Source: a virus (lineage: Duplodnaviria > Heunggongvirae > Uroviricota > Caudoviricetes). From it: DNA of 17,108 nt. Where the stretch lies: the IMG/VR virus record IMGVR_UViG_2869976549_000007. One strand, given 5' to 3'. Position 1 is the first letter of the stretch; every line of letters starts with the position of its first letter. This document shows positions 1-17,069 of the stretch, in pieces. A model generated the notes under the pieces. It was not told where the DNA came from, searched no databases, and saw only the letters and a program-made list of their open reading frames with translations. The translations under genes and the position numbers were made by a program.

Positions 1-363
1 ATGCAGACGAAACAACGTCTTGATGTACCGCTGAGTCTGAAATCTGTCAGTGACTCCGGTGAGTTTGAAGGGTATGGCTCCGTCTTTGGTGTAAAGGACA
101 GCCACGATGATGTGGTGATGTCCGGGGCATTTGCTGCTTCCCTGCGGGCGTGGAGTGACAGAAAAGCGTTACCTGCGCTGCTCTGGCAGCACCGCATGGA
201 TGAACCCATCGGTGTTTACACCGAAATGAAGGAAGACGATGTCGGGCTTTACGTCAGGGGACGGTTGCTTATTGATGATGATCCCCTCGCAAAACGTGCA
301 CATGCACACATGAAGGCCGGTTCGTTAACCGGCCTTTCTATTGGGTACGTCCTGAAAGACTGA
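1..363 (+). pseudogene. Phage prohead protease (HK97/S78-like) N-terminal fragment, truncated by the IS600 insertion
   Basis: The 120-aa translation (…EFEGYGSVFGVKDSHDDVVMSGAF…LWQH…) resembles the N-terminal region of HK97-family prohead proteases. Its stop codon TGA (361..363) is the first three bases of the IS600 left end. No capsid gene follows. Confidence 0.55.
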
Positions 364-424
364 GGTAGCCTGAGTTTAACGGACGCTCCTTCCTGAAATA
401 GAATGGCATCAGAAGGAGCTAATA

Positions 425-727
425 ATGAGCAGAAAAACCCAACGTTACTCTAAAGAGTTCAAAGCCGAAGCTGTCAGAACGGTTCTTGAAAATCAACTTT
501 CGATCAGTGAAGGCGCTTCCCGATTATCTCTTCCTGAAGGCACTTTAGGACAATGGGTTACCGCCGCCAGAAAAGGGCTCGGTACTCCTGGTTCCCGCAC
601 GGTGGCTGAACTGGAATCTGAAATTCTGCAACTGCGTAAGGCGTTAAATGAAGCTCGCCTTGAGCGAGATATATTAAAAAAAGCAACAGCGTATTTTGCA
701 CAGGAGTCGCTGAAAAATACGCGTTAA
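425..727 (+). CDS. IS600 OrfA (helix-turn-helix transposase N-terminal component)
   Basis: 100-aa ORF with IS3-family OrfA features and a leucine-zipper-like C-terminus (LQLRKALNEARLERDILKKATAYFA). A ribosome-binding site (AGGAG) precedes the ATG. Confidence 0.85.
   Translation: MSRKTQRYSKEFKAEAVRTVLENQLSISEGASRLSLPEGTLGQWVTAARKGLGTPGSRTVAELESEILQLRKALNEARLERDILKKATAYFAQESLKNTR
676..682 (+). other. Slippery A7 run (A_AAA_AAA) for programmed -1 frameshift producing the OrfAB transposase
   Basis: The A-run sits in the orfA zero frame (ILKKA). The orfB frame is open from 682 through the first ATG at 763. This is the standard IS3-family arrangement. Confidence 0.5.
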
Positions 728-762
728 TCGAACAATGGCGACAACAATTTCCCATTGAAGCG

Positions 763-1581
763 ATGTGTCAGGTATTTGGTGTATCCAGGAGCGGTTATTA
801 CAACTGGGTACAGCATGAACCCTCAGACAGAAAACAAAGTGATGAGCGGCTAAAACTGGAGATTAAGGTGGCACATATCCGCACTCGCGAAACATATGGA
901 ACCCGGCGGCTCCAGACGGAGCTGGCAGAGAATGGCATCATCGTTGGTCGTGACCGACTGGCACGTCTTCGTAAGGAGCTAAGGCTACGCTGTAAGCAGA
1001 AACGCAAGTTCAGAGCGACTACGAACTCGAACCACAATCTGCCAGTTGCGCCAAATCTGCTGAACCAGACGTTCGCTCCTACAGCACCAAATCAGGTCTG
1101 GGTGGCGGACCTGACGTATGTTGCCACACAGGAGGGATGGTTGTACCTCGCTGGCATCAAAGATGTTTATACGTGCGAAATTGTCGGCTACGCCATGGGA
1201 GAGCGCATGACAAAAGAGCTGACAGGTAAAGCCCTGTTTATGGCGCTCAGGAGCCAGCGCCCACCTGCCGGGCTAATCCACCACTCTGATCGAGGTTCAC
1301 AGTACTGCGCATACGATTACCGGGTCATACAGGAGCAGTCTGGTCTGAAAACATCAATGTCGCGTAAAGGTAACTGTTACGACAACGCTCCGATGGAAAG
1401 CTTCTGGGGAACGCTGAAAAATGAGAGCCTGAGCCACTATCGTTTTAATAACCGGGATGAAGCCATCTCAGTAATACGGGAATACATTGAGATTTTCTAC
1501 AATCGTCAGCGTCGTCACTCTCGTCTGGGGAATATCTCCCCGGCAGCCTTCAGGGAAAAATATCATCAGATGGCTGCTTAA
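763..1581 (+). CDS. IS600 OrfB (DDE/RNaseH-fold transposase catalytic domain, expressed as OrfAB fusion)
   Basis: 272-aa ORF from the first ATG; the frame is open upstream to about 682. It carries IS3-family catalytic-region motifs (…HSDRGSQY…, …CYDNAPMESFWGTLKNE…). Confidence 0.85.
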   Translation: MCQVFGVSRSGYYNWVQHEPSDRKQSDERLKLEIKVAHIRTRETYGTRRLQTELAENGIIVGRDRLARLRKELRLRCKQKRKFRATTNSNHNLPVAPNLLNQTFAPTAPNQVWVADLTYVATQEGWLYLAGIKDVYTCEIVGYAMGERMTKELTGKALFMALRSQRPPAGLIHHSDRGSQYCAYDYRVIQEQSGLKTSMSRKGNCYDNAPMESFWGTLKNESLSHYRFNNRDEAISVIREYIEIFYNRQRRHSRLGNISPAAFREKYHQMAA

Positions 1582-1643
1582 AAAAAGAACAAATGGTAGT
1601 GTCCGCTATTGCCAGTACACCTCAAGGATAAGGCTAAAAAATC

Positions 1644-3140
1644 ATGACGATAAGTTTTAATACTGTTCCGTCGAATACGCTGGTGCCGTTGTTCTACGCC
1701 GAGATGAACAATTCTGCGGCAAATACAGCGGTGACCAGCGCGCCTGCATTACTGATCGGGCATGCCAGCAACGATGCAGCCATTGAGGTTAACAGCCTGG
1801 TGCTGATGCCATCGGCAGATTATGCCCGCCAGATTTGTGGGGCGGGGAGCCAGCTGGCGCGTATGGTGGAAGTCTACCGTCAGACAGATCCTTTCGGTGA
1901 ACTGTATGTTATTGCAGTACCGGAAGCCAGAGGGGCGGCGGCGACGGTCAGGGTGACGGTTGCCGGAGAAGCAGAGGAAAGCGGCACCCTGAGTCTGTAT
2001 GTCGGGCGCTCCCGTGTACAGGTGCCTGTGGTGAATGGCGATGATGCCACTGCGGTTGCCACCGCGATTAAGGAAGCGGTAAACGGGGTTATCACCCTGC
2101 CGTTTACGGCGTCATCTGATGCAGGTGTGGTGACGCTGACTGCCCGTCATAAGGGGCTGTATGGTAATGAGTTACCGGTCTGTCTGAATTATTATGGTTC
2201 TGGTGGTGGTGAGATTCTGCCAGCAGGGCTTCGGGTGGTGACGGAAGTCGGTGCTGCCGGTAGCGGAGCGCCTGATCTTACCGCCGCTGTTGCTGCTATG
2301 GGCGATGAGGCATTCGACTTTATCGGTCTGCCGTTCAACGATGCCGCCTCCATCAATATGATGATGACCGAAATGAATGACAGCAGCGGTCGCTGGAGTT
2401 ATGCGCGCCAGTTATACGGGCATGGCTATACCGCAAAACTGGGAACGCTGTCAGAGCTGGTTGGTGCCGGAGATATGCATAATCAGCAACATATCACGCT
2501 TGCCGGTTACGAAAAAGAAACCCAGTCGCCTGTCGATGAACTGGTTGCCAGTCGCCTTGCCCGTGAAGCGGTATTTATCCGGAATGATCCTGCCCGTCCG
2601 ACACAGACGGGGGAGCTGGTGGGGATGCTTCCGGCACCGAAAGGTAAGCGATTCATCATGACAGAGCAGCAGACCCTTTTATCTCACGGCGTGGCGACGG
2701 CTTATGTGGAAGGCGGCACGTTGCAGATCCAGCGTTCCGTAACCACCTACAAAAAGAATGCGTATGGCGTGGCAGACAACAGCTATCTGGACAGTGAAAC
2801 TCTGCATACCAGTGCATATGTTCTTCGCAAACTGAAATCGGTCATCACAAGCAAGTACGGACGTCACAAGCTGGCAAATGATGGTACCCGTTTTGGTCCG
2901 GGGCAGGCGATTGTCACTCCTGCCGTTATCAAAGGGGAACTTCTGGCGACATATCGTCAGATGGAGCGTGCCGGTATTGTGGAAAATTACGATCTGTTTA
3001 AACAGTATCTGATAGTTGAGCGTGATGCAGATAACCCGAACCGACTGAATACGCTGTTCCCGCCGGATTATGTTAATCAGTTACGTGTCTTTGCGGTGGT
3101 TAACCAGTTCCGTCTTCAGTATTCAGAGGAGTCAGCATAA
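1644..3140 (+). CDS. Contractile tail sheath protein (Mu gpL-like)
   Basis: 498 aa. The N-terminus MTISFNTVPSN…VPLFYAEM resembles Mu-type sheath proteins. The size fits, and its stop overlaps the next start (ATAATGG). Confidence 0.85.
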   Translation: MTISFNTVPSNTLVPLFYAEMNNSAANTAVTSAPALLIGHASNDAAIEVNSLVLMPSADYARQICGAGSQLARMVEVYRQTDPFGELYVIAVPEARGAAATVRVTVAGEAEESGTLSLYVGRSRVQVPVVNGDDATAVATAIKEAVNGVITLPFTASSDAGVVTLTARHKGLYGNELPVCLNYYGSGGGEILPAGLRVVTEVGAAGSGAPDLTAAVAAMGDEAFDFIGLPFNDAASINMMMTEMNDSSGRWSYARQLYGHGYTAKLGTLSELVGAGDMHNQQHITLAGYEKETQSPVDELVASRLAREAVFIRNDPARPTQTGELVGMLPAPKGKRFIMTEQQTLLSHGVATAYVEGGTLQIQRSVTTYKKNAYGVADNSYLDSETLHTSAYVLRKLKSVITSKYGRHKLANDGTRFGPGQAIVTPAVIKGELLATYRQMERAGIVENYDLFKQYLIVERDADNPNRLNTLFPPDYVNQLRVFAVVNQFRLQYSEESA

Positions 3141-3496
3141 TGGCAAAGATCGCCGGAACCTGTTTTTTTAAAGTGGATGGTCAGCAGTTATCGCTGACAG
3201 GTGGCATTGAAGTGCCGATGAACACCAATGTCCGGGATGACATCGTCGGCATGGCAGGGGATGTGGATTACAAGGAGACCTGGCGGTCACCTTACGTTAA
3301 GGGCACGTTTAAAGTGCCCAAAAACTTTCCGGTCGACAAAATTACCACCTCAGACCAGATGACGATTACCGCTGAGCTGGCAAACGGCATGGTGTATGTG
3401 CTTTCGGCGGCATGGCTGCACGGAGAGGCTAATCATAATGCCGAAGAAGGCACGGCAGATCTTGAATTCCACGGCGAAGAGGGAGGGTATCAGTAA
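3140..3496 (+). CDS. Tail tube protein (Mu gpM-like)
   Basis: 118-aa ORF immediately after the sheath gene, translationally coupled to it. Position and size fit a Mu-type tube protein. Confidence 0.65.
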   Translation: MAKIAGTCFFKVDGQQLSLTGGIEVPMNTNVRDDIVGMAGDVDYKETWRSPYVKGTFKVPKNFPVDKITTSDQMTITAELANGMVYVLSAAWLHGEANHNAEEGTADLEFHGEEGGYQ

Positions 3497-3831
3497 TGGC
3501 AATGAACGTTACAGAAATAGTTTTAAAAAAACCGGTGACAGCGCATAACGAAATGCTGCATGTGCTGGAGTTGCGCGAGCCCACGTATGACGAAATCGAG
3601 GCGCTGGGTTTTCCTTTCATTATTTCCGGTGAAGGCAGTATTAAACTGGACAGCCAGGTGGCACTGAAATATATCCCGTTGCTGGCGGGGATCCCGCGTT
3701 CATCGGCGGCGCAGATGGCAAAACTGGATATTTTTAAGACCAGCATGCAGATCCTGCGTTTTTTTACCCAGTCGGAGACGGGAAGCACCTCCGGAAACGA
3801 CTCTACAATGTTGCCTGGTTCTGGAAACTGA
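3496..3831 (+). CDS. Tail assembly chaperone (Mu gp41-like)
   Basis: 111-aa ORF between the tube and tape-measure genes, containing a T_TTT_TTT slippery heptamer near its 3' end. Confidence 0.6.
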   Translation: MAMNVTEIVLKKPVTAHNEMLHVLELREPTYDEIEALGFPFIISGEGSIKLDSQVALKYIPLLAGIPRSSAAQMAKLDIFKTSMQILRFFTQSETGSTSGNDSTMLPGSGN

Positions 3832-3923
3832 ATCCACTGGAGCTGCGACGGGGGGCTGTTTCGCAGTTTACAGAACTGGAAGCCGAGGCCGTCCGCATTA
3901 ACGAGGAGATGAAGCATGGCTGA
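3759..3923 (+). other. Programmed -1 frameshift site (T_TTT_TTT, 3759..3765) and -1 frame extension of the tail assembly chaperone
   Basis: The heptamer lies in the zero frame (cgT TTT TTT acc). The -1 frame is open for 52 codons (YPVGDGKHLRKRLYNVAWFWKLNPLELRRGAVSQFTELEAEAVRINEEMKHG) and stops at 3921..3923, just past the tape-measure ATG at 3916. Confidence 0.5.
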
Positions 3924-5865
3924 CAGTTTTCAGCTGAAGGCGATCATCACTGCCGTGGATAAGGTATCGGCACCGCTGAAGGGAATGCAGCGCCAGCTGA
4001 AAGGTTTTAAAAAGGAGTTTGCCAGCCTGTTACTGGGCGCAGCGGGTGCCGGAACCGCAGTACTGGGGGCGCTGGCGCTCCCGGTCAAATCTGCCATTGC
4101 CCTTGAATCAAAAATGGCGGATGTCCGGAAAGTGGTGGATGGTCTGGATACGCCGGAAGCGTTTAAGGCAATGACGGAGCAGGTGCGCGACCTGTCAACA
4201 GAACTGCCCATGTCGGCGGAAGGTATCGCCGAAATTGTGGCGGCGGGTGGTCAGGCTGGTATCGCCCGTGACGAGCTGATGCAGTTTACTGACGATGCCG
4301 TGAAGATGGGCGTGGCCTTTGACACCACGGCAGAAGAATCCGGTCAGATGATGGCGCAGTGGCGCACTGCCTTTAAACTGACACAGGGAGAGGTGGCAGG
4401 GCTTGCGGATAAGATTAACTATCTTGGTAATACCGGTCCTGCAAGTGCGAAAAAGATTTCTGATGTTGTGACCCGTATTGGCCCTTTAGGCAGTGTTGCG
4501 GGTGTGGCCTCCGGAGAGATTGCCGCAATGGGGGCAACCATTGCCGGAATGGGGGTGGAGTCAGAAATTGCTGCGACGGGGATAAAGAATTTTATGTTGT
4601 CGCTGACAGCGAGGGATTCTGCCACCAAATCGCAGAAAAAAGTGCTCCGCTCGTTGCGCATTAGCCCGAAAAAACTGGCGGCGGATATGCAGAAAGACGC
4701 CCGCGGGGCCATGCTGCACGTACTGGATTCTCTGGCAAAAGTGCCGAAAGAAAAACAGGCTGCTGTGCTGAAAGCGCTGTTCGGGAAGGAATCCCTGGGG
4801 GCCATTGCGCCGCTGCTCACGAATCTGGATTTGTTGCGAACCAACTTTAATCGTGTGGCGGATGCGCAGCAGTATGGCGGCTCAATGCAGAAAGAATATG
4901 CCGCCCGTGCCGCGACGACAGAAAATCAGTTGTTGCTGCTGCAGAACCAGATCAATGCGATTTCTTCCACGCTGGGGGAAACCTTCCTGCCTTCACTCAA
5001 TGAAGGCATAAAAGAGATGAAGCCTTTTCTGGAAGAAGTGCGCACGTTTGTCAGAGAAAATCCTGAGGTCGTAAAAACCATCGCGAAAACTGGTGCGGCA
5101 TTACTGACGATGGGCGTGGCGATTGGCACATTGACACGCATAACAAAAATCATGGGTAGCGTGATGAATATGACGCCGGCAAAGGGATTAATTGCGCTTC
5201 TCGTCGGTGGTGCATATCTCATAATTGATAACTGGGAAACGGTCGGTCCGGTTGTGAAAAAAGTCTGGCAGGAGGTTGATCAGGTTGTCAGAGCAATGGG
5301 GGGATGGGAACAGGCAGTAAAAACAATAGCAACGGTTTCTGCCCTGTATATTGGTGTGAAGGCGGTGGCAAGTATTCGTGCGGCAACAGTCGCCCAGAAT
5401 CAATGGACAACGGCGGCAGGAAAAACAGGGCTGAAATTAAAGGGCCTCGGAAAGATCAGTCTGATTGGTGGATTGCTTGAACTGGGCATGATGGCGCAGG
5501 AGTTTGAAAAAGCACATCCCTGGCTTGTTAAAAATTTTGTGGCTGATGCACTGAACAGTGGATTTGGTCTGAATGATAAGTTCGACGAGTGGGGCAAACA
5601 GTTCCATGATTTTGTCTATGACATGACCGGATGGCAGATGCCACGTGGTGATGGGTATTTATCTCCCGATAAACGCTACACCCCGAATGTATCACTGGAA
5701 AGGAATCAGCTGTTAAGCCTTGCATCTTCACCGGCAACCCGCAGCGAACTTAAGGTGACGTTTGACAACGCGCCGCCTGGAATGCGCGTTATCGATTTGC
5801 CGAAAACAGGCGATCCCTTTATGAAAATCACCCATGATGTTGGGTATTCTCCATTTAAAAGGTGA
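3916..5865 (+). CDS. Tail tape measure protein (Mu gp42-like)
   Basis: 649 aa, directly downstream of the chaperone frameshift window. Ala/Gly-rich N-terminus and an internal hydrophobic segment (…GAALLTMGVAIGTL…GLIALLVGGAYLII…) are typical of tape-measure proteins. Confidence 0.8.
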   Translation: MADSFQLKAIITAVDKVSAPLKGMQRQLKGFKKEFASLLLGAAGAGTAVLGALALPVKSAIALESKMADVRKVVDGLDTPEAFKAMTEQVRDLSTELPMSAEGIAEIVAAGGQAGIARDELMQFTDDAVKMGVAFDTTAEESGQMMAQWRTAFKLTQGEVAGLADKINYLGNTGPASAKKISDVVTRIGPLGSVAGVASGEIAAMGATIAGMGVESEIAATGIKNFMLSLTARDSATKSQKKVLRSLRISPKKLAADMQKDARGAMLHVLDSLAKVPKEKQAAVLKALFGKESLGAIAPLLTNLDLLRTNFNRVADAQQYGGSMQKEYAARAATTENQLLLLQNQINAISSTLGETFLPSLNEGIKEMKPFLEEVRTFVRENPEVVKTIAKTGAALLTMGVAIGTLTRITKIMGSVMNMTPAKGLIALLVGGAYLIIDNWETVGPVVKKVWQEVDQVVRAMGGWEQAVKTIATVSALYIGVKAVASIRAATVAQNQWTTAAGKTGLKLKGLGKISLIGGLLELGMMAQEFEKAHPWLVKNFVADALNSGFGLNDKFDEWGKQFHDFVYDMTGWQMPRGDGYLSPDKRYTPNVSLERNQLLSLASSPATRSELKVTFDNAPPGMRVIDLPKTGDPFMKITHDVGYSPFKR

Positions 5866-5999
5866 GTTCTTTTTTTGTGGTGAAAGATGAGGCAAAATTA
5901 TCGCGTAACATGCTAACAATGGAGTTTGTTTTGTGATAAAGCCATTTTTAATGACGGTTGCAATATTAACCTCTTGCTGTGCTCAGGCGAAAATACTAA

Positions 6000-7195
<1,196 letters not shown>

Positions 7196-7209
7196 ATAGT
7201 GGAGACAGT

Positions 7210-8601
7210 ATGGACTTACCTTCTTTACCTTCTCTTTCTTCACTCTTTTCTGCATCTTCAGGTATCAATTGGCGCGATAATCTTTACGACGCTTCATTTC
7301 GTGGCGTTCCGTTTTCGGTGGAGAGCGACGAGGGTTCGTTCGGACGCCGCGTTCAGGTCCATGAATACCCAAACCGTGACAAACCGTACACGGAAGATCT
7401 CGGGCGTGCCACGCGACGGCTGACGATTAATGCGTATCTCGTTGGTGATGATTACGCAGAGCAGCGCGACAGGCTGATTACAGCGATTGAAACCGCCGGG
7501 CCGGGGACGCTGATCCATCCGCAGTTCGGTGAAATGCAGGGCTGTATTGACGGGCAGGTGACCGTTTCTCACTCCGGCACTGAAGGCCGTATGTGCCGGG
7601 TTTCATTTCAGTTTGTTGAGAGCGGGGAACTGTCATTTCCGGTCGCCGGAGCTGCAACCGCCAGAAAACTGGAGGAGTCGTCCGTATTCCTGGATGAGTT
7701 GATTGAAGACATGTTCGGCGATTTTGATCTCGCGGGAATACCGGACTTTATTCAGAACGATGTTATTGCCCGGACGACCGATATGCTGGGAACCGTTCAG
7801 ACAGCTTTCAAAATGGTTAATTCGGCTGTTTCTGCCGGAGCGAGACTACTGCAGGGCGATTTATCCGTCATTCTGATGCCGCCGTCGGTTGCCAGTGATT
7901 TTGTGCATACGTTGCAGGATACCTGGCGGGCCGGAACCCGGCTGGTGGATAACACACAGGATCTGGTGCAGTCCATAACGACAATGTCCGGCATTACGCT
8001 GGACCCAGGACTGGCACCGCGTGCGGTGTGGCCCACAGATTCCGCATCGGTTATCAGGCAAAAACAGCAGACAAACCTTGTGGCTGCTGTCATCCGGACG
8101 ACGGCAATCAGCGAAGCCACAAGGGCGGTCACTTCACTGCCACAACCCGGAAGCCTGGTGAAAAATCAGCAGGCGGTTGTGGCTGTTGGTGGTTCCACTG
8201 AACGTCAGTCCGATATTATTCACGTTTCTCATCCGGCACTTGACAGCGTGGCAGCCAGCACAGGACAGGATGAGAGAGCGCAACCACCCACGCGGGAAAA
8301 TCTCACCATCATACGCAAATCGCTGAACGCGGCGATTGAACAGGAGCTCAGGCGTACGGCGGATGACAGGCTGTTTTTTCAGCTGACGTCATTACGTACA
8401 GAACTGAACCGGGATATTCAGGCGCGTCTGGTTCAGACGGAGGAAACCGCAGAGCGAACGCCAGCGGAAGTTCTGCCTGCGCTTGTTCTGGCTGCGTCAT
8501 GGTACGACGATGCGTCCCGTGAAACTGATATCCTGGATCGAAATGCCATCTCTCATCCGGGCTTTGTTCCGGTCAGGGCATTAAGGGTACCCGTCAGATG
8601 A
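7210..8601 (+). CDS. DNA circularization protein N-like (Mu gpN/gp43-like)
   Basis: The ORF-track start at 7030 lies inside IS5. The first ATG after the IS5 right end is 7210 (MDLPSLPSLSSLF…) with GGAGA 6 nt upstream. Position after the tape-measure gene fits Mu gene order. Confidence 0.65.
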   Translation: MDLPSLPSLSSLFSASSGINWRDNLYDASFRGVPFSVESDEGSFGRRVQVHEYPNRDKPYTEDLGRATRRLTINAYLVGDDYAEQRDRLITAIETAGPGTLIHPQFGEMQGCIDGQVTVSHSGTEGRMCRVSFQFVESGELSFPVAGAATARKLEESSVFLDELIEDMFGDFDLAGIPDFIQNDVIARTTDMLGTVQTAFKMVNSAVSAGARLLQGDLSVILMPPSVASDFVHTLQDTWRAGTRLVDNTQDLVQSITTMSGITLDPGLAPRAVWPTDSASVIRQKQQTNLVAAVIRTTAISEATRAVTSLPQPGSLVKNQQAVVAVGGSTERQSDIIHVSHPALDSVAASTGQDERAQPPTRENLTIIRKSLNAAIEQELRRTADDRLFFQLTSLRTELNRDIQARLVQTEETAERTPAEVLPALVLAASWYDDASRETDILDRNAISHPGFVPVRALRVPVR

Positions 8602-9698
8602 ATGATACCGTTTTACTTCGGGTTTCCGGTCGCGAATGGGGCGGCTGGACATCCGTCCGTATCAGTGCGGGCATTAACCGTATTGCCCGGGATTTTAATG
8701 TTGCCATTACCACCCGCTGGCCCGGAAGCCGGGATTATCAACCCCGGATAAAAAATGGTGAGCTGGTTGAAGTGCTTATCGGGGATGAGCCTGTGCTCAC
8801 CGGATATGTGGAGGCACTACCGCTTCGTTATGACGCCAGCAGCGTCAGCATGGGAATTGTCGGGCGAAGCAAAACAGCCGATCTGGTTGACTGCTCTGCT
8901 TTGCCACTCCAGCAGAGCGGAAAAAACCTGCTCAGAATAGTCAGTGAACTGGCTGCGCCATTTGGCATCACCGTTGTTGATGCTGGCGTGCCGCAGACAG
9001 CGGTGATTGATGCCCAGCCGGAACACGGCGAAACCGTTGCCGATTGTCTTAACCGGTTACTGGGGCAGGTTCAGACGCTGGCTTATGACGATGAATGCGG
9101 GCGACTGGTTCTGGGAAAACCCGGAACAGGTAAAGCGGCGACGGCGCTGGTGCTGGTGCTGGTGCTGGTGCTGGTGCTGGGAGAGAATATTCTTTCCTGT
9201 GACACGGAAAGAAGCATCAGAGAGCGGTTTTCTGAATATCAGGTCAGTGGGCAGCGCCCGGGCAACGACGATGATTTTGGTGAGGCCACCATTGCCGCAA
9301 TACGTCAGACCATTCAGGACAGTGGCGTGACCCGTTATCGCCCTTTGTTGATTCAGCAGTCAGGCACAGCAACGACAGCAACCTGTAAGGCCCGTTGTGA
9401 ATTTGAAGCGCGCCAACGGGCTGCGCTTACCCGTGAGACAACATATACGGTTCAGGGCTGGCGGCAGGGCAGTGGCGCGTTATGGCGTCCGGGGTTATCT
9501 GTCATCGTTTTCGACCCGCTGAATAATTTTGATAATGATGAACTGGTGATCGCAGAAGTTACCTATAACCAGGACGACCGGGGCACGACGACTGAATTAC
9601 GGGTTGGCCCGGCAGATGCTTATCTCCCCGAGCCTGTTACCGCCAGGAAGAAAAAAATGTTGAGGAGGATTTCTGATGAACGGGTTTTCTCTTCGTAA
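8598..9698 (+). CDS. Baseplate hub protein (Mu gpP/gp44-like)
   Basis: 366 aa; its ATG overlaps the upstream stop (ATGA). Position matches Mu gene order. Contains an in-frame hexanucleotide repeat. Confidence 0.6.
   Translation: MNDTVLLRVSGREWGGWTSVRISAGINRIARDFNVAITTRWPGSRDYQPRIKNGELVEVLIGDEPVLTGYVEALPLRYDASSVSMGIVGRSKTADLVDCSALPLQQSGKNLLRIVSELAAPFGITVVDAGVPQTAVIDAQPEHGETVADCLNRLLGQVQTLAYDDECGRLVLGKPGTGKAATALVLVLVLVLVLGENILSCDTERSIRERFSEYQVSGQRPGNDDDFGEATIAAIRQTIQDSGVTRYRPLLIQQSGTATTATCKARCEFEARQRAALTRETTYTVQGWRQGSGALWRPGLSVIVFDPLNNFDNDELVIAEVTYNQDDRGTTTELRVGPADAYLPEPVTARKKKMLRRISDERVFSS
9146..9181 (+). repeat. Tandem hexanucleotide repeat (GCTGGT) x ~6 inside the baseplate hub CDS, encoding (LV)n
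   Basis: Direct reading: gctggtgctggtgctggtgctggtgctggtgctggg, translated in frame as ALVLVLVLVLVLGE. Confidence 0.9.
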
Positions 9699-10209
9699 TC
9701 TGATTTCCCGGGCTGTCATCACGGCGGTGGATTCCGCCAGAAAGTGTCAGTCTGTAGGGTTGAAAATGATAGCCGGAGATCAGAAACAACACGTTGAGCA
9801 CCTTGAACCTTATGGTTTTACATCTGCCGCACAGAACGGTGCTGAGGGCGTTGCTTTATTTCCGGCGGGCGATCGTTCTCATGGTGTGGTTGTGGTCGTG
9901 GCTGACAGACGTTACCGGCTGAAAGGACTGAAACGTGGGGAAGTGGCGCTTTATGACGATCTGGGACAGTCCGTTGTCCTGACCCGTTCCGGTATTGTGG
10001 TGGACGGGGCCGGGAAGGCCATAATTTTTAAAAACGCGCCTAAAGCGCGCTTTGAAATGCCAGTCGAATCCACCGCCGATATTACTGACAATTGCGACAG
10101 TGGCGGACTCAGCATGCAGCAAATGCGGCAGGCCTACAATGCCCACAAACATACCGAAAATGGTGATGGTGGCGGGATCACTGACACGCCGGATCAACCG
10201 ATGGGCTGA
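9676..10209 (+). CDS. Baseplate spike / assembly protein V-like (Mu gp45-like)
   Basis: 177 aa with a strong ribosome-binding site (GAGGAGG). The C-terminal motif …HKHTENGDGGGITDTP resembles the P2 gpV/Mu gp45 family (…HTHKHPGDSGGTTG…). Confidence 0.7.
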   Translation: MNGFSLRNLISRAVITAVDSARKCQSVGLKMIAGDQKQHVEHLEPYGFTSAAQNGAEGVALFPAGDRSHGVVVVVADRRYRLKGLKRGEVALYDDLGQSVVLTRSGIVVDGAGKAIIFKNAPKARFEMPVESTADITDNCDSGGLSMQQMRQAYNAHKHTENGDGGGITDTPDQPMG

Positions 10210-10214
10210 AAATC

Positions 10215-10625
10215 ATGATGATTAATGTTAACGGGCGACCCGTGTCGACCGGGGCTTCGATCGACCTTCTGACGCGTGCTGTGATTATTTCGCTTTTTAC
10301 ATGGCGGCGTGCCGGGCGTGATGATGCACCACGGATATTTGGATGGTGGGGGGATACCTGGCCTGCGGTTCAGAATGATCGCACGGGGTCGCGTTTGTAT
10401 CTGTTGCGACGCAGCAAGCTGACAAATAAAACCCCGCAGCTTGCCAGAGATTATGTCCGTGAGGCGCTGGCGTGGATGGTGGAGGATGGTGTTGCTTCCC
10501 GTCTTGATATTAACGCTGTCCGGACCGGGACAGACTCGCTGGCACTTGCCATTACCATTTACCAGCGTGACGGCAATATTCACAACATTATTTTTGATGA
10601 TATCTGGAGTGAACTGAATGGCTGA
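10215..10625 (+). CDS. Baseplate protein, Mu gp46-like
   Basis: 136-aa ORF between the spike and the baseplate J-like gene; overlaps the downstream start. Confidence 0.6.
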   Translation: MMINVNGRPVSTGASIDLLTRAVIISLFTWRRAGRDDAPRIFGWWGDTWPAVQNDRTGSRLYLLRRSKLTNKTPQLARDYVREALAWMVEDGVASRLDINAVRTGTDSLALAITIYQRDGNIHNIIFDDIWSELNG

Positions 10626-11226
10626 CAGTCAGTTTTATCGCCCCGGCCTCCCGCAACTTATTTCTATGATCCGGAGCGATTTATTAACCCGCTTTGAGCA
10701 GGATACGCTGCTTCGTCGTATGGATGCGGAAGTGTATGCCCGTGTACAGGCTGCAGCCGTACACACGTTGTACGGGTATATCGATTATCTTGCCAGAAAT
10801 CTGTTACCGGACGTGTGTGATGAAGACTGGCTGTACCGGCACGCCAGAATCAAACGCTGCCCGCGAAAAGAAGCGGTGGCAGCCCGGGGATTTGTGCGCT
10901 GGGATGGCGTAGAGGGGACGCCGGTATTGCCAGCGGGAACGCAGATCCAGCGTGATAATCAGGTGACCTTTACCACGACGGCGACGGTGACCGCAGCCGA
11001 TGGTCTTCTCCGGGTGCCTGTTGTGGCAGACGAACCGGGATCGGCGGGGAATACGGATGATGGTATTGCCATGCAACTGGGAACACCCGTCAGTGGTCTG
11101 CCGTCCACAGGGTACGCTGACACCATTACAGACGGTGAAGATATTGAAAATCTGGAAATATGGCGTGCCCGCGTTATGGAACGTTATTACTACATTCCAC
11201 AGGGGGGCGCAGGTAATGACTCCAAC

Positions 11227-11730
11227 TTATTGATAGTGTTTTATGTTCAGATAATGCCCGATGACTTTGTCATGCAGCTCCACCGATTTTGAGAACGACA
11301 GCGACTTCCGTCCCAGCCGTGCCAGGTGCTGCCTCAGATTCAGGTTATGCCGCTCAATTCGCTGCGTATATCGCTTGCTGATTACGTGCAGCTTTCCCTT
11401 CAGGCGGGATTCATACAGCGGCCAGCCATCCGTCATCCATATCACCACGTCAAAGGGTGACAGCAGGCTCATAAGACGCCCCAGCGTCGCCATAGTGCGT
11501 TCACCGAATACGTGCGCAACAACCGTCTTCCGGAGACTGTCATACGCGTAAAACAGCCAGCGCTGGCGCGATTTAGCCCCGACATAGCCCCACTGTTCGT
11601 CCATTTCCGCGCAGACGATGACGTCACTGCCCGGCTGTATGCGCGAGGTTACCGACTGCGGCCTGAGTTTTTTAAGTGACGTAAAATCGTGTTGAGGCCA
11701 ACGCCCATAATGCGTGCAGTTGCCCGGCAT
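11227..11730 (-). CDS. insB: IS1 InsB (expressed as InsAB' by frameshift)
   Basis: 167-aa minus-strand ORF overlapping insA. The A6C slippery motif (minus-strand TTAAAAAAC) lies near 11671..11681. Confidence 0.9.
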
Positions 11731-11924
11731 CCAACGCCATTCATGGCCATATCAATGATTTTCTGGTGCGTACCGGGTTGAGAAGCGGTGTAAGTGAACT
11801 GCAGTTGCCATGTTTTACGGCAGTGAGAGCAGAGATAGCGCTGATGTCCGGCAGTGCTTTTGCCGTTACGCACCACCCCGTCAGTAGCTGAACAGGAGGG
11901 ACAGCTGATAGAAACAGAAGCCAC
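11649..11924 (-). CDS. insA: IS1 InsA
   Basis: 91 aa, [43 protein letters not shown]…, matching IS1 InsA. Confidence 0.95.
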
Positions 11925-12476
11925 TGGAGCACCTCAAAAACACCATTATACACTAAATCAGTAAGTTGGCAGCATCACCGGGGGCGCAGACCCTGATTAT
12001 GTTATCTGGGCGAAAGAAGTTCAGGGTATTAACCGTGCATGGACTTTCAGACACTGGAAAGGCACTGGAACGGTTGGCGTGATGGTGGCGACAAACGATC
12101 CGGAACGCCCGGCCCCGGATGAAAGCGTGATTAACGCAGTCAGGGACCACATCCTTCCTCTGGCACCTGTTGCCGGAAGCGGATTGTATGTATTCGGTGC
12201 CACAGAAAAAGTCATCCCGATGACGATTGCATTATCGAAAGACACACCGCAGATCAGGACTGCAATAAAAGCAGAGCTGAATGCACTGATGTTACGGGAT
12301 GGTGTGCCAGAGGGGCGTATGTATCTGTCCAGAATCAGTGAGGCCATCAGTTTGTCTGCTGGTGAAGTGGCCCACCGGTTAATCGTCCCTTCATCGGATA
12401 TTGACCTGGGGGAGACCGAGCTTCCGGTGCTCGGCGAGATCACCTGGCAGGCTTATGACCCGGCAAGGAGTAAATA

Positions 12477-13067
12477 ATGGATTCGTTACAGGATGATTAT
12501 ACAAAGCTGCTGTACGGACTGATGCCGCCGGGGCCTGCATGGTCAGATACCGACGGTGTACTTGACGGTCTGGCACCATCGCTTGTGCGTGTTCACCAGC
12601 GGGCTGATGAACTGGTGATTGAAATCGATCCCGGTCAGTCCACAGAGCTGATTGAACGTTATGAAGAATTGTATGGTTTACCTGATTCCTGTTCCCCTGT
12701 CGGAACCCAGACATTACGCCAGCGTCAGCAACGTCTTGAAGCAAAAGCCAATGTGGCTGGTGGCATAAATGAGCAGTTCTTCCTGGATCAGCTTGAGGCG
12801 CTGGGATATACCGGCGTAACGATCGAACAGTTCCAGCACTTGGATGCAAGCCCCGATCCGGAATGGGGAGATCGCTGGCGTTATTTCTGGCGTGTGACGT
12901 TGCCGATGGATGCCGGTGCTCAGTGGCAGACATGCACGGACGCCTGCAACACACCGATCCGGACGTGGGGGGATACGGTTGCGGAGTGCGTGATTAATAA
13001 ATTATGTCCGTCACACACCGTCGTTTTATTTTCCTATCCAGATGAGGATGAAGATGCACAGGATTGA
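12477..13067 (+). CDS. Tail/baseplate protein, Mu gp48-like (DUF2313/YmfQ-like)
   Basis: 196 aa; its start overlaps the baseplate J stop (TAATGG). Position between baseplate J and the tail fibre fits Mu gene order. Confidence 0.65.
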   Translation: MDSLQDDYTKLLYGLMPPGPAWSDTDGVLDGLAPSLVRVHQRADELVIEIDPGQSTELIERYEELYGLPDSCSPVGTQTLRQRQQRLEAKANVAGGINEQFFLDQLEALGYTGVTIEQFQHLDASPDPEWGDRWRYFWRVTLPMDAGAQWQTCTDACNTPIRTWGDTVAECVINKLCPSHTVVLFSYPDEDEDAQD

Positions 13068-14094
13068 TACGCTGACTGCGGTAAAAGATAAGTTTGGTCC
13101 GGGTAAGAACGGATTTACTGACGGAAATCTTCGCACAGGACGTCTTGCTACCTGGCTGAACAGTGCCATGTGGAATGCCATTCAGGAGGAAATCTGTGGT
13201 GTCATTGAGAAGGCCGGGATAGAACTGAATAAAGAAGAACACGACCAGCTATATAAGGCTATATTATTGCTGGTGGGCGGTGCAATTAACGAAGAGGCAT
13301 TGCTGATAAAAAATAACCTTTCGGATGTGGAAGACAGGGATGAGGCTGTTGAAAACCTCGGATTAAAACCCACGGTGGATAAGGCAAAAAATGCCGTTCA
13401 GCGTGATGGCGACACCATGACCGGAGAGCTGAAAATCCGTGGTGTTAATGCGCTGAGGATTTTCAACGAAGCTTTTGGCCTGATTTTTCGTCGTTCGGAA
13501 GAGTGCCTGCACCTTATTCCCACCAGTGAAGGTCAGGGGGAAAATGGCGATATTGGTCCCCTGCGCCCGTTCACCATTAATCTGCGGACGGGTGAAATAT
13601 CCATGTCGCATAAAGTGTCTGTTGGCGGTGGTTCGCAGGTCAATGGTGCGCTGGGTATCGGCGTTCAGAACGCCCTGGGGGGGAATTCAATTGTTCTTGG
13701 TGATAATGACACCGGATTCAAACAGAATGGTGATGGCCTGCTGGATGTTTATGCCAATAGCGTGCATGTGTTGCGTTTTCAGAGTGGCAGTATCCAGAGT
13801 AATAAAGCTGTAAACGTTACAGGACGGGTAACACCGTCAGACTACGGAAACTTTGATGCCCGTTACCAGCAGCGAAATGGTGGCGTGCAGGATGTGCGGT
13901 ATGGTTATGAAATGTATTACACCCCCGGCAGTAACACCGTTTCGTGGACATTTCGCTCACCTTCGGGACACGGGCTGTCAGGGATATCGATATCGGATAC
14001 CGGCCGTAACTCAGCGGATAACGTCAACGGCGTGTATTACCGACCGCTGCAAAAACTGATTAATGGCACCTGGTATAACGTAGCGAGTATTTAA
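13042..14094 (+). CDS. Tail fibre protein (Mu S-like N-terminus)
   Basis: The N-terminal motif …HRIDTLTAVKDKFGPGKNGFTDGN…WLNSAMWNAIQEEICGVIEKAGIEL… resembles conserved tail-fibre N-termini. Start is ambiguous (in-frame ATGs at 13042, 13048, 13054). Followed by a tfa-like gene. Confidence 0.7.
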   Translation: MRMKMHRIDTLTAVKDKFGPGKNGFTDGNLRTGRLATWLNSAMWNAIQEEICGVIEKAGIELNKEEHDQLYKAILLLVGGAINEEALLIKNNLSDVEDRDEAVENLGLKPTVDKAKNAVQRDGDTMTGELKIRGVNALRIFNEAFGLIFRRSEECLHLIPTSEGQGENGDIGPLRPFTINLRTGEISMSHKVSVGGGSQVNGALGIGVQNALGGNSIVLGDNDTGFKQNGDGLLDVYANSVHVLRFQSGSIQSNKAVNVTGRVTPSDYGNFDARYQQRNGGVQDVRYGYEMYYTPGSNTVSWTFRSPSGHGLSGISISDTGRNSADNVNGVYYRPLQKLINGTWYNVASI

Positions 14095-14096
14095 CA

Positions 14097-14642
14097 ATGT
14101 TGCATTTAAAAAATATTACGGCAGGTAATCCGAAAACCGCGGAATAATATCAGCTGACAAAACAGTATGATGTCACCTGGCTTTTTTCGGAAGACGGCAA
14201 AAACTGGTATGAAGAACAGAAGAACTTTGCCAGTGACACCATAAAAATGGTTTACACCGGAGACGGGCGCGTGGTGTGGGTCGGTAAGGATGTGACAGGC
14301 ATTGAACCCCGTAACGCCAGTGTTATTGAAGTTCCTGATATTACCGCCAACCGCCGCATTACCGCGCCGGGTTACTGGTTTTACCGCAATGATGAATTTG
14401 TCTTTGACTACAGACTCAAAGCGGAAGATGAGCGTGATGCCCTTCTGGCTCAGGTCAGTGCCCGGACAGGGGAATGGGAAGAAGACCTGCTGCTGGGGCT
14501 AATCAGCGACGAAGACCGGGAAAAACTGAAAGCGTACCGTATTTACGCGAAATCGCTGCAGGCGATGGATTTCAGCACCATCACTGATAAATCCTCATAT
14601 AACGCCATTGAATGGTCCGTCTCTCCGGAAGGTTCTTCCTGA
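14097..14642 (+). pseudogene. Tail fibre assembly protein (Tfa/Mu U-like) with in-frame ochre codon at 14145..14147
   Basis: The ATG at 14097 gives MLHLKNITAGNPKTAE, then TAA, then in the same frame YQLTKQYDVTWLFSEDGKNWYEEQKNF… continuing to 14642. The Tfa-like N-terminus (MxHLKNITAGNPKT…) therefore lies upstream of the stop. First in-frame ATG after the stop is 14247. Confidence 0.6.
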
Positions 14643-14665
14643 TTTAATTTATCGCGAGAAAAACT

Positions 14666-15934
14666 ATGTCTGTAGTGATATCAGGTGCGCTGACTGATGG
14701 CGCAGGCATCCCCATGTCCGGATGCCAGATTATTCTGAAATCCCGTGTAAACATCTCAGAAGTGGTGATGCGTACCAGGGCTGATGTAGTGACCGGAAAT
14801 AACGGTGAATATTCGTTTGAGGCACAGGTCGGAAAATATTGCGTGTATCTGAAACGGGACTGGCGCGACGAGTACTGTGTTGGCGACATTGCTGTATACG
14901 ACGACTCAAAGCCCGGCACGCTGAATGACTTTCTGATTGCTCCTGATGAGGGCGACCTGAAACCGGATGTCGTCAAACGCTTTGAGGAAATGGTGGCGCA
15001 GGCGCAGCAGAGCGCCGGGGCCGCAGCCGGAAACGCACAGCAGACGGCGCAGGATGTGGCGGCAGCCGCAGGTTATGCCCGCGCAGCAGAGCAGGCCAAA
15101 AATGACATTGATGCTGCGCTGACCGGCACTCTGAAAACGGCTAACCATCTGTCTGAAATCGCAGCAGCAGGCGAAAAGGCACAACAGAAGTCCCGGGATA
15201 ATCTGGGGCTGAAAAGTGCGGCCACGATGGAAGCACAGAGCGACATTTACGACCGGACAAAAGGCCGTCTGGCGATACCCGGCGCATTCGGCTTTGGGTG
15301 TGCTTTTCTGCCTGAAGATGTTATCCGTTTTGACACTAAGAGTGATTTCCTGGCCTGGGTAAGGAATGCGCTGCCAGGTGAATATTCCGTTGCTGGCCCC
15401 TACGACATCATCATACCCGACACACGGTTTGAAGGGGTGCTCAGCATCCGGTGGACTGATGCACGCCCTGAGACAACAGAACCGAGGTACAGAGCCAAAT
15501 CCCTTACTTTTTACGGCATTAACGGCCCCATTTATCACACCCGCTACTGCTACTGGCCCATATCCAGACTGACTGGCTGGGTGAAAATAAATATAACCAC
15601 AGAAGATATTATTTACAGAATCGTGGCGAGCTCTGTCTGCAACAGATGGGGAGACCCTGACATTGGCGGGCTGATTATTGCTGCGTACCAGGGAGAAGCT
15701 GACGGTGATAAAGTCATCAGACTTGTCAGGGGGCAGTCATACAGAGGCTCACGACTGGGACCGGTGGGGATTTCAGTGCCCAGTACTCCCACCGGAACGT
15801 ATATAGCATCCCCACAATTTTTCATTACGGGATGTTCAGAGCATTCATTACCGGGGTCATATAGCGCCCTGTCCGGGGTGCCGGATGCTCATGTCTCTGG
15901 CGCAATGCCCGGGCTTTTTATTCGCACATCGTGA
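14666..15934 (+). CDS. Second tail fibre-like protein: lambda Stf-type N-terminal domain, Ala/Gln-rich linker, unrecognised C-terminal domain
   Basis: The N-terminus MSVVISGALTDGAGIPMSGCQIILKSR…YDDSKPGTLNDFL closely parallels the lambda Stf N-terminus (…TDGAGKPVQNCTIQLKARR…VYEDSQPGTLNDFL). An Ala/Gln-rich segment follows. The C-terminal ~220 aa has several Cys and no motif I recognise. Confidence 0.6.
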   Translation: MSVVISGALTDGAGIPMSGCQIILKSRVNISEVVMRTRADVVTGNNGEYSFEAQVGKYCVYLKRDWRDEYCVGDIAVYDDSKPGTLNDFLIAPDEGDLKPDVVKRFEEMVAQAQQSAGAAAGNAQQTAQDVAAAAGYARAAEQAKNDIDAALTGTLKTANHLSEIAAAGEKAQQKSRDNLGLKSAATMEAQSDIYDRTKGRLAIPGAFGFGCAFLPEDVIRFDTKSDFLAWVRNALPGEYSVAGPYDIIIPDTRFEGVLSIRWTDARPETTEPRYRAKSLTFYGINGPIYHTRYCYWPISRLTGWVKINITTEDIIYRIVASSVCNRWGDPDIGGLIIAAYQGEADGDKVIRLVRGQSYRGSRLGPVGISVPSTPTGTYIASPQFFITGCSEHSLPGSYSALSGVPDAHVSGAMPGLFIRTS

Positions 15935-15944
15935 GGAATGCACC

Positions 15945-16508
15945 GTGGAAATTAAAAAAATCATTAATCCCCGTTATACCGAAAGTGGCGCAGTAGACTG
16001 TGACGTTTTTTTTGACGACAGGGACCAGGCAGTCCCCTACACAGCCACCGCTGATGATGTCGCACCGACGGGTCAGCGAATCTGGCAGGAACTGCAAAGT
16101 GGCAAATGGGGTGAGATAGCCCCATTCACTGTGACACCAGAAATGCTGGAAGCGGCCAGAGAGGCCAGACGTCAGGAAATTGAAGCATGGCGCACAGAAC
16201 AGGAGGCGAAGCCGTTCACGTTTGAATGGAATGGTCGTATCTGGAATGCTGGCCCCGACTCACTGGGCCGCCTGTCCCCGGTAGTCATGCTGGCAAAATC
16301 TGTCACAGCACAAACGCATATGGCGTGGGGTGATGCCGATAATCAGCAGGTGAAACTGTCGATGCCGGAACTGGAAGAACTGGCGGCAGCAATGGTGCAG
16401 GCGCAGGTCGATCGCAACGATGAGATTTATCGCCGTCAGCGTGAAATGAAAGAGGAGCTGAGTGGTCTGGAGGATTTGGGAACAATTAGAGCGTTTGATG
16501 TTACGTAA
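15945..16508 (+). CDS. Putative tail fibre chaperone / assembly protein (DUF4376-like)
   Basis: A GTG start at 15945 with GAGGAA 7 nt upstream, just after the upstream TGA (15932..15934). The ORF-track ATG at 15885 would overlap the upstream gene. The 187-aa product has a C-terminal pattern (…FEWNGRIWNAGPDSLGRL…WGDADNQQVKLSMPELEELAAAMV…) resembling fibre-associated chaperones. Confidence 0.45.
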   Translation: MEIKKIINPRYTESGAVDCDVFFDDRDQAVPYTATADDVAPTGQRIWQELQSGKWGEIAPFTVTPEMLEAAREARRQEIEAWRTEQEAKPFTFEWNGRIWNAGPDSLGRLSPVVMLAKSVTAQTHMAWGDADNQQVKLSMPELEELAAAMVQAQVDRNDEIYRRQREMKEELSGLEDLGTIRAFDVT

Positions 16509-16706: not shown

Positions 16707-17069
16707 TGGTGGAGCTGGCGGGAGTTGAACCCGCGTCCGAAATTCCTACATCCTCGGTACTACATGCTTAGTCAGTCTTTACATTCGCTTGCCAGCTGCG
16801 GACGGACACGCCACTAACAAACTAGCCTGATTAAGTTTTAACGCTTCAACCCCAGGCAGGGCTTCCACGCGATCTCTTTTGGGTTTGACCTCTCTTGATC
16901 CCCGTCCTAAGAGCGGAGGCTAGGGAGAGAGGGCTCTAAGCAGGTTATTAAGCTGCTAAAGCGTAGTTTTCGTCGTTTGCGACTATTTTTTGCGGCTTTT
17001 TACGAGGCCAACCGCCCCTCGGCATGCACCTTGGGTTTCGCAAATCCCGTCGAATCCAGAATCAGCCCC
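16707..17069 (-). ncRNA. ssrA: tmRNA (transfer-messenger RNA)
   Basis: The reverse complement reads GGGGCTGATTCTGGATTCGACGGGATTTGCGAAACCCAAGGTGCATGCCGAGGGG…GCAAACGACGAAAACTACGCTTTAGCAGCTTAATAA…GGGTTCAACTCCCGCCAGCTCCACCA. This is an enterobacterial ssrA with the ANDENYALAA tag-coding region and 3' CCA. Confidence 0.95.

Follow-up and report, generated by a model that had tools for sequence, protein, structure and literature searches.

Organization of the locus around the IS600 copy

The DNA analysed here (17,108 nucleotides, hereafter the window) forms the right arm of a phiP27-like prophage that is defective and adjoins ssrA in Shigella sonnei. Its beginning contains a fragment of a prohead protease gene, a complete IS600, the last bases of a DUF2635 gene and an intact tail sheath gene (Table 1). 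The sheath gene, which at 1497 bp is equal in length to the TD225-C4 and phiP27 L44 genes, is the first surviving gene of a Mu-like tail module. The baseplate and tail domains Gp45, GP46, Baseplate_J and Gp48 of this module were found in the window, Baseplate_J being split by IS1. The original prediction had assumed a Mu-type layout, which had to be dropped for the head module; this is of HK97 type, with a Peptidase_S78 protease and a P27-family terminase small subunit, and only the tail and baseplate are Mu-like.

Table 1. Positions of the features at the IS600-bordered junction in the window.
Feature	Position	Strand	Description
Prohead protease fragment (HK97-family, Peptidase_S78)	1..360	+	5' 360 bp, codons 1-120 of 216
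Left 3-bp flank, candidate half of a target-site duplication	358..360	.	GAC
IS600 (IS3 family), complete	361..1624	+	1264 bp; assigned by identity to annotated copies, domains and length as in control copies
IS600 orfA	425-727		HTH_Tnp_1 domain
A7G run	676-683		within the orfA/orfB overlap region
IS600 orfB	763-1581		HTH_21, rve and rve_3 domains
Right 3-bp flank	1625-1627		AGG; first 3 bp of the DUF2635 remnant
DUF2635 gene remnant	1625..1647	+	last 23 bp; holds the sheath ribosome-binding region; window 1625 = L001 15872
Tail sheath gene, intact	1644..3140	+	498 aa; Phage_sheath_domII, Phage_sheath_1 and Phage_sheath_1C domains

The called protease ORF spans positions 1-363 and encodes 120 aa, and its stop codon, TGA at 361-363, consists of the first three bases of IS600. 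The reading frame thus ends at the first codon of the element, after codon 120 of 216, and on the other side the sheath ATG begins at the 20th base past the IS600 right end with 19 nt between them, both as originally predicted. The protein aligned with residues 1-120 of the 216-aa proteases of FDAARGOS_944, TD225-C4 and phiP27 (L39), its identity with L39 being 89% over the 120 aa kept. The match to Pfam PF04586 (E=6.9e-21; 75.5 bits against a cut-off of 21) extends over profile positions 6-115 of 165 and falls short of a full Peptidase_S78 domain, which together with the 120 of 216 residues present identifies a gene fragment. The exact truncated protein was seen on 622 contigs, with names including [Shigella sonnei] and [Shigella sonnei Ss046]. 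What S. sonnei records list as a 120-aa “HK97 family phage prohead protease” is a truncated pseudogene, with a stop codon supplied by IS600.

The IS600 copy has exact ends (TGAGGTAGCC...ACACCTCA), the same length as the control copies and 99.0-99.7% identity to copies annotated in RefSeq as “IS3-like element IS600 family transposase”. A “programmed frameshift” is annotated on homologous copies, and a -1 frameshift is predicted for the window copy. The terminal repeats, TGAGGTAGCCTGAGTTTAACGGAC and GTCCGCTATTGCCAGTACACCTCA, are imperfect; 16 of 24 positions, counted by eye, match between the left end and the reverse complement of the right end (TGAGGTGTACTGGCAATAGCGGAC), and the ends are of the 5'-TG...CA-3' form. 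An inverted-repeat search did not report these repeats, the exact seed being only 6 nt. Length, identity, terminal repeats and the two-ORF layout all agree with IS600, and the 3-bp duplication is absent. A promoter and terminator scan of positions 1-2000 gave counts no higher than in shuffled sequence; the sole promoter-like site (376-404) lies inside the IS600 left end, and the scan is uninformative on sheath expression.

The differing 3-bp flanks reported earlier, GAC and AGG, were confirmed, so the window IS600 has no target-site duplication. Two random 3-mers differ by chance in 63 of 64 cases and the mismatch alone is little proof; it gains weight because each of three control IS600 copies at E. 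coli loci keeps a perfect 3-bp duplication (ATG/ATG, AAG/AAG and ATT/ATT). The unequal flanks indicate that the window IS600 is not at a simple insertion site and are no argument against its identity as IS600.

The missing segment in comparison with undeleted relatives

The nearest undeleted relative is a prophage of E. coli FDAARGOS_944, which is 100% identical to the window across both breakpoints. Window positions 1-362 correspond to 12001-12362 of its locus (L001), the protease fragment accounting for 12001-12360, and window positions 1625-2097 correspond to L001 15872-16344. The 3,511 bp between these flanks (L001 12361-15871) are not represented in the window. On the left, the position of the breakpoint is uncertain by 2 bp, since TG is both the next dinucleotide of the intact phage and the first of IS600. 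On the right, the DUF2635 coding sequence of the relative (L001 15733-15894) runs into the sheath gene, which starts at 15891.

The RefSeq annotation of the two E. coli prophages and of phiP27 supplied the list of genes in the missing segment. The genes in phiP27 (NC_003356), FDAARGOS_944 and TD225-C4 follow the order 216-aa protease, major capsid, head-tail connector, head closure, 174-aa protein, tail terminator, DUF2635 and sheath. The DNA absent from the window therefore includes, on the head side, 291 bp at the 3' end of the protease gene (the C-terminal 96 codons) and the major capsid, head-tail connector and head-closure genes, and on the neck side the 174-aa gene, the tail-terminator gene and most of the DUF2635 gene (its initial 139 of 162 bp). 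An IS600-associated deletion of several kb, as had been proposed, is thus borne out by the alignment that mapped its breakpoints. An intact relative in which a short protease is followed directly by the sheath would have spoken against it, and all three relatives carry the intervening genes. The further claim that the head genes had been removed held for the capsid, connector, closure and 3' protease sequences, and was too narrow in that the tail-neck genes (tail terminator, 174-aa protein and DUF2635) were lost too. Collinearity with the intact relative is strong evidence for deletion. We are highly confident that 3,511 bp were deleted, from protease codon 121 up to the last 23 bp of the DUF2635 gene, and that the one intact IS600 marks the scar.

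Each of the 19 complete S. sonnei-type genomes sampled, CP000038.1 among them, contained both 40-nt junction strings, which indicates an old and fixed event and not an assembly artefact. The left junction gave no match in an exact-pattern scan of GTDB species representatives, which is the outcome to expect if an E. coli genome stands for Shigella in that set. The left side of the prophage remnant in S. sonnei abuts IS4 next to bamD, a non-native neighbour; the 3' end of the portal gene (90 bp) still precedes the protease in S. sonnei genomes and abuts this IS4. The loss of the portal and terminase genes is not due to the IS600-bordered deletion. The loss of head and neck genes leaves the prophage unable to build capsids or complete tails. 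Thus, the deletion explains why the S. sonnei prophage is dead, and its exact breakpoints are available for annotation.

Possible routes to the deletion

We consider recombination between two IS600 copies to be the most likely route, with about an even chance of being the correct one. Two equally oriented copies would have been inserted, one into the protease gene at GAC and one into the DUF2635 gene at AGG, the second perhaps by a local hop, and each insertion, by copy-out-paste-in via a circle, would have made its own 3-bp duplication. RecA-dependent recombination between the copies would then have looped out the 3.5 kb together with one IS600, and the product would be a single IS600 bordered by half of each duplication, the left half coming from one and the right half from its counterpart. 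The locus has the features of a scar of recombination between direct IS repeats, namely a single IS, 3-mers that differ and flanking sequences collinear with those of an intact relative. IS600 is among the five IS expanded in all Shigella, where IS copies have been described as facilitating deletions between homologous copies (PMC7373316). [quoted passage not shown]

Earlier stages of such a recombination were searched for. In 5,426 complete E. coli genomes, queried by megablast with IS600 plus 100-bp flanks, no match reached into either flank in the proper context, so that no genome with IS600 at one or both sites was found there and the two-copy stage is hypothetical. The two best partial flank extensions were chance matches at unrelated loci, one near a torS-side integrase and one near dicB/recE. 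In exact-pattern scans, the IS600 right end followed by GAC and the rest of the protease gave no match in GTDB species representatives and JGI metagenomes, and DUF2635 sequence up to AGG followed by the IS600 left end gave none in JGI metagenomes. A 47-aa partial DUF2635 protein of S. flexneri was rejected as a truncation at the same site, as its N-terminus is cut by a contig start at codon 7, a different position. The strings CAGTACACCTCAGACTGGGAATACGAC and GTGTTAAACAGGTGAGGTAGCCTGAG together in one genome would support recombination between two copies.

A less probable route, which still deserves weight, is an adjacent deletion driven by transposase from one end of a single IS600, inserted at AGG or GAC. 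One end of the element would have been joined to a site 3.5 kb away, by aberrant or “sloppy” strand transfer, through the active IRR-IRL junction formed in a transient tandem dimer or by end-joining repair, with the interval lost and the IS kept. Such a deletion yields exactly the product observed, an intact IS with exact ends and no duplication, and it needs only one insertion, which agrees with the two-copy intermediate not having been found in the E. coli genomes, GTDB or JGI. The 2-bp TG overlap of phage and IS600 at the left junction fits assistance by microhomology, although such evidence is weak (chance 1/16) and no overlap exists at the right junction. Flanking deletions are, however, “not consistent with this mechanism” of copy-out-paste-in unless an extra reaction is added (bioRxiv 10.1101/2023.06.07.543989). 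In addition, IS excision goes with the IEE-linked deletions described, but the window IS600 was kept intact, and a word search of the IEE paper PMC9943667 found no mention of Shigella. The final sequence is alike under recombination between two copies and under one-ended deletion, and the routes are not separable here. It is a rather doubtful possibility that the scar records a true one-step, one-ended IS600 deletion joined at the TG microhomology in a host not known to carry an IS-excision enhancer; if true, it would be a natural IS3-family reaction outside the copy-out-paste-in prediction. The choice between these routes is of modest specialist interest.

That the head genes were moved and not lost, by recombination between IS600 copies that translocated or inverted the segment and left the partner flanks at another copy, is very improbable. 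The S. sonnei genomes are heavily rearranged by IS, and the non-native IS4 junction beside bamD would suit such an origin. However, the IS600 flanks are collinear with those of intact prophages and match them in order and orientation, and direct repeats within one molecule recombine to excise the interval as a non-replicating circle, so that loss of the interval is predicted and a partner flank at another IS600 is not expected. For the seven proteins of the interval, from the full-length protease to DUF2635, the source names listed for the exact FDAARGOS_944 versions are E. coli, Enterobacteriaceae or S. flexneri and never S. sonnei, with at most 3 names listed per sequence, which makes this weak evidence. 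A naturally headless element (tailocin or satellite) with a simple IS600 insertion, or an assembly collapse at the repeat, can practically be dismissed: a tail-only cluster superficially resembles R-type bacteriocin loci, but the genes on both sides are cut mid-domain (the protease at 115/165 and DUF2635 down to its last 23 bp), a tail terminator is among the genes deleted, Baseplate_J is split, a protease fragment is present and the 3-bp duplication left by simple insertion is absent, while the 19 genomes sharing identical junctions were assembled independently.

Relation to known prophages and IS-associated deletions

The tail arm (window 1625-16478) is collinear with and 94.5% identical to phiP27, an Stx2e phage (NC_003356 / AJ298298). 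The phiP27 genome and the phiP27-like E. coli prophages have the same order as the window arm, which in phiP27 runs through portal, L39 protease, L40 capsid, neck genes and L44 sheath. Unlike phiP27, which is a complete and functional phage, the window copy has lost 3.5 kb of head and neck sequence and bears IS600, IS5 and IS1; on its sequence, it may be filed as a degraded phiP27-like member with the head and neck part missing. The window prophage is located at ssrA, whereas that of TD225-C4 is on the yecE/yecD side. The Shigella serotype-converting phages SfV, SfII and SfI are, like the window element, mosaics of an HK97-like head and a Mu-like tail. At about 77-80% nucleotide identity in parts of the protease and tail genes, they are far more remote than phiP27; they are also functional phages with gtr genes, which were not seen in the window.

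A literature search found no paper on the 3.5-kb deletion, and the genome accession numbers had no literature match. The event itself is of an ordinary and already known kind, prophage decay driven by insertion sequences. As summarized in PMC9943667 and bioRxiv 10.1101/2023.06.07.543989, the flanking deletions associated with IS629 and IEE in EHEC O157 (Kusumoto et al, 2011) also involve an IS3-family element and start at the IS end, and the use of microhomology has been proposed for them. According to the same sources, those events depend on IEE and accompany IS excision, unlike the window, where IS600 was retained intact. A parallel in element and host group is the expansion of IS1, IS2, IS4, IS600 and IS911 in Shigella (Hawkey et al, 2020; PMC7373316), which has the same outcome of gene loss bordered by a single IS without duplication. 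That study catalogues insertion sites and pseudogenes genome-wide, and the word “prophage” does not occur in it. With the present deletion, the documented cases of IS-driven prophage decay in Shigella increase by one; the deletion opens no new question and, in common with many IS sites of S. sonnei, is fixed in the species (PMC7373316).

IS600 junctions and the missing interval

The protease ORF stop TGA (361–363) was the opening triplet of IS600, and its Peptidase_S78 match was confined to profile positions 6–115 of 165. Protein alignment placed the fragment at residues 1–120 of the 216-aa relatives, with identities of 100% to E. coli FDAARGOS_944, 90% to TD225-C4 (a second E. coli prophage strain) and 89% to the Stx2e phage phiP27 (NC_003356). 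The sheath ORF started 19 bases beyond IS600, and the 3-mers outside the element were GAC (left) and AGG (right). Thus, the predicted layout, with the protease stopping at IS600, the sheath gene 20 bp on and unequal flanks, was read in the sequence in every element. Among 5,426 complete E. coli genomes, ~1,100 carried the protease fragment and ~1,100 the sheath region.

The IS600 copy was 99.0–99.7% identical to RefSeq copies annotated as “IS3-like element IS600 family transposase,” and homologous RefSeq copies carry a programmed frameshift label. The GAC/AGG mismatch is weak when taken alone, as two random 3-mers differ with a chance of 63/64. Because all three complete control copies, present in loci fetched for other reasons, had perfect 3-bp duplications (ATG/ATG, AAG/AAG and ATT/ATT), as a simple IS600 insertion leaves, the window copy is not a simple insertion.

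Features of the window around the IS scars
Feature	Position (nt)	Size	Details
Prohead protease fragment ORF	1–363	120 codons	Pfam Peptidase_S78 “Caudovirus prohead serine protease,” E = 6.9e-21
IS600 (IS3-like)	361–1624	1264 bp	ends TGAGGTAGCC... and ...ACACCTCA
IS600 first ORF	425–727		HTH_Tnp_1 (Pfam)
A7G run	676–683		close to orfA end
IS600 second ORF	763–1581		rve/DDE (Pfam)
DUF2635 gene remnant	1625–1647	23 bp	final 23 bp of gene
Tail sheath ORF	1644–3140	498 aa	three phage tail-sheath domains
IS5 copy	6000–7195		4-bp flanks CTAA and ATAG
IS5 transposase	6068–7048	326 aa	DDE_Tnp_1/DUF772
Mu GpP-like baseplate gene	8598–9698		
GCTGGT repeat	9146–9180	×5.8	perfect hexanucleotide repeat in GpP-like gene
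Baseplate_J ORFs	10618–11292, 12079–12477		one gene split by IS1
IS1	11212–11979		InsA/InsB, minus strand
ssrA (tmRNA)	16707–17069		minus strand, right end

The closest undeleted relative was the prophage locus of FDAARGOS_944 (NZ_CP065613; L001). Window 1–362 and 1625–2097 matched L001 12001–12362 and 15872–16344, respectively, at 100% identity, and 3,511 bp (L001 12361–15871) had no counterpart in the window. The left breakpoint has a 2-bp ambiguity, TG being both the IS600 start and the next phage bases, and the right one is exact. In RefSeq, the interval holds the remainder of the 216-aa HK97-family protease, the major capsid protein, a head-tail connector, a head closure protein, a 174-aa hypothetical protein, the tail terminator and a 53-aa DUF2635 protein. 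The gene order was the same in TD225-C4 and phiP27; the equivalent phiP27 interval is ~3.5 kb, with L39 as the 216-aa protease (labelled “major head protein”), L40 as capsid and L44 as sheath. A relative whose protease ends here with the sheath gene next was looked for, and all three relatives had the 216-aa protease and the intervening genes. On these alignments, the original prediction of an IS600-associated deletion of several kb stands. The head genes are gone as predicted, and the tail-neck genes (tail terminator and DUF2635) were lost too. With its protease cut short and its capsid, connector and head-closure genes lost, the remnant is incapable of making capsids; it has no tail terminator either.

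The exact 120-aa truncated protein was found on 622 contigs and is recorded as “HK97 family phage prohead protease [Shigella sonnei]” and “putative prohead protease [Shigella sonnei Ss046].” Both 40-nt junction strings were present in all 19 complete-genome loci, including CP000038.1, retrieved by the exact protease fragment or exact sheath protein. Because all 19 S. sonnei loci carry both strings and the truncated protein is on S. sonnei records, the junction is genuine rather than a product of misassembly, and it seems to be fixed in this species. The IS600 junction was absent from the 5,426 complete E. coli genomes searched. The exact sheath protein occurred in 2,065 indexed blocks, the longest contig being 2–5 kb in 1,888; these contigs probably arose where short reads assembled the 4.4-kb stretch from IS600 to the following IS by itself.

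Routes to the deletion

Two routes yield an identical final sequence. In the first, the protease gene (at GAC) and DUF2635 (at AGG) would each have received an IS600 copy, the two lying as direct repeats and each creating a separate duplication, and homologous recombination would then have excised 3.5 kb and one IS copy as a circle. This is what would conventionally be expected of an IS3-family element, and we consider the chances that it made the deletion evenly balanced. [quoted passage not shown] Somewhat more doubtful is a one-ended event joining one IS600 end to a site 3.5 kb off. Adjacent flanking deletions are documented for the IS3-family element IS629, but these are tied to excision dependent on the IS-excision enhancer and are mechanistically unsettled (bioRxiv 10.1101/2023.06.07.543989; PMC9943667). 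The TG overlap would fit such an event with the first insertion at AGG, although it is expected by chance in 1 of 16 cases. An intermediate having IS600 with an intact duplication at one site only was found in none of the complete E. coli genomes, GTDB species representatives or JGI metagenomes. Relocation of the 3.5-kb segment elsewhere in the genome is unlikely because the phage DNA on either side of IS600 is collinear and runs in one orientation; among the source names listed for exact FDAARGOS_944 versions of the segment's seven proteins, S. sonnei never appeared, a weak point against relocation. A naturally headless element was ruled out by mid-domain cuts on both sides and the tail terminator loss.

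Decay of the prophage and its relatives

As a prophage in decay, the locus is a textbook example. IS1 in the Baseplate_J gene is bordered by a perfect 9-bp duplication (GGGGGCGCA) and is a simple insertion, unlike the IS600 and IS5 scars. The IS5 copy, with unequal 4-bp flanks, stands in for 448 bp of FDAARGOS_944 (L001 21551–21998), the bulk of a hypothetical gene that has the tape-measure and DNA-circularisation genes as its neighbours. Other S. sonnei genomes keep those 448 bp with IS1 inside, and the IS5 junctions were found in 0 of 19 S. sonnei loci; the scar is a second, strain-specific IS-bordered deletion.

In S. sonnei genomes, IS4 cuts the 5′ side, with just 90 bp of portal sequence left, and the order left of the window (L003, an S. 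sonnei locus, 8440–10000) is clpB-yfiH-rluD-bamD, IS4, the portal 3′ end and protease. The prophage site is ssrA, shared with E. coli C311. In the K-12 map, bamD is normally found beyond ssrA/smpB, and the orientation would fit an IS4-mediated inversion parting the prophage left arm from the window remnant. The GCTGGT repeat behaves as a VNTR: the GpP-like product ranges from 350 to 364 aa among S. sonnei genomes, and alignments to the window vary by 6-bp steps.

The FDAARGOS_944 prophage, with 100% identity at both breakpoints and 99.8% over window 2087–5999, is decaying independently, with ISEc60 (IS4-like) in its portal and sheath genes (L001 10570–11861 and 16344–17637) and frameshifts in terminase and Q genes. 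S. flexneri drafts (L017–L019) contain a related DUF2635-sheath-tube cluster on contigs opening at DUF2635 codon 7, and many partial neck proteins stop at contig edges (connector fragments of 80–101 aa and, on 395 contigs, a tail-terminator fragment of 74 aa), suggesting that the IS breakpoints differ in the version of this prophage type carried by S. flexneri.

Comparison with known prophages

IS-bordered deletions without target duplications are well known, as is IS-driven prophage decay in Shigella; the finding of the IS600 scar is correct and ordinary, nothing new in kind. Our literature search found no paper on this scar, and PHAST-type S. sonnei surveys already include phiP27-like regions (PMC5447701). 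The predicted Mu-type layout held for the tail and baseplate, to which the Mu-type domains (DNA_circ_N, GpP-like, Phage_Mu_Gp45, GP46, Baseplate_J and Phage_Mu_Gp48) are limited, and not for the head module, which is HK97-type. With 94.5% nucleotide identity to phiP27 over window 1625–16478, the element overall is phiP27-like.
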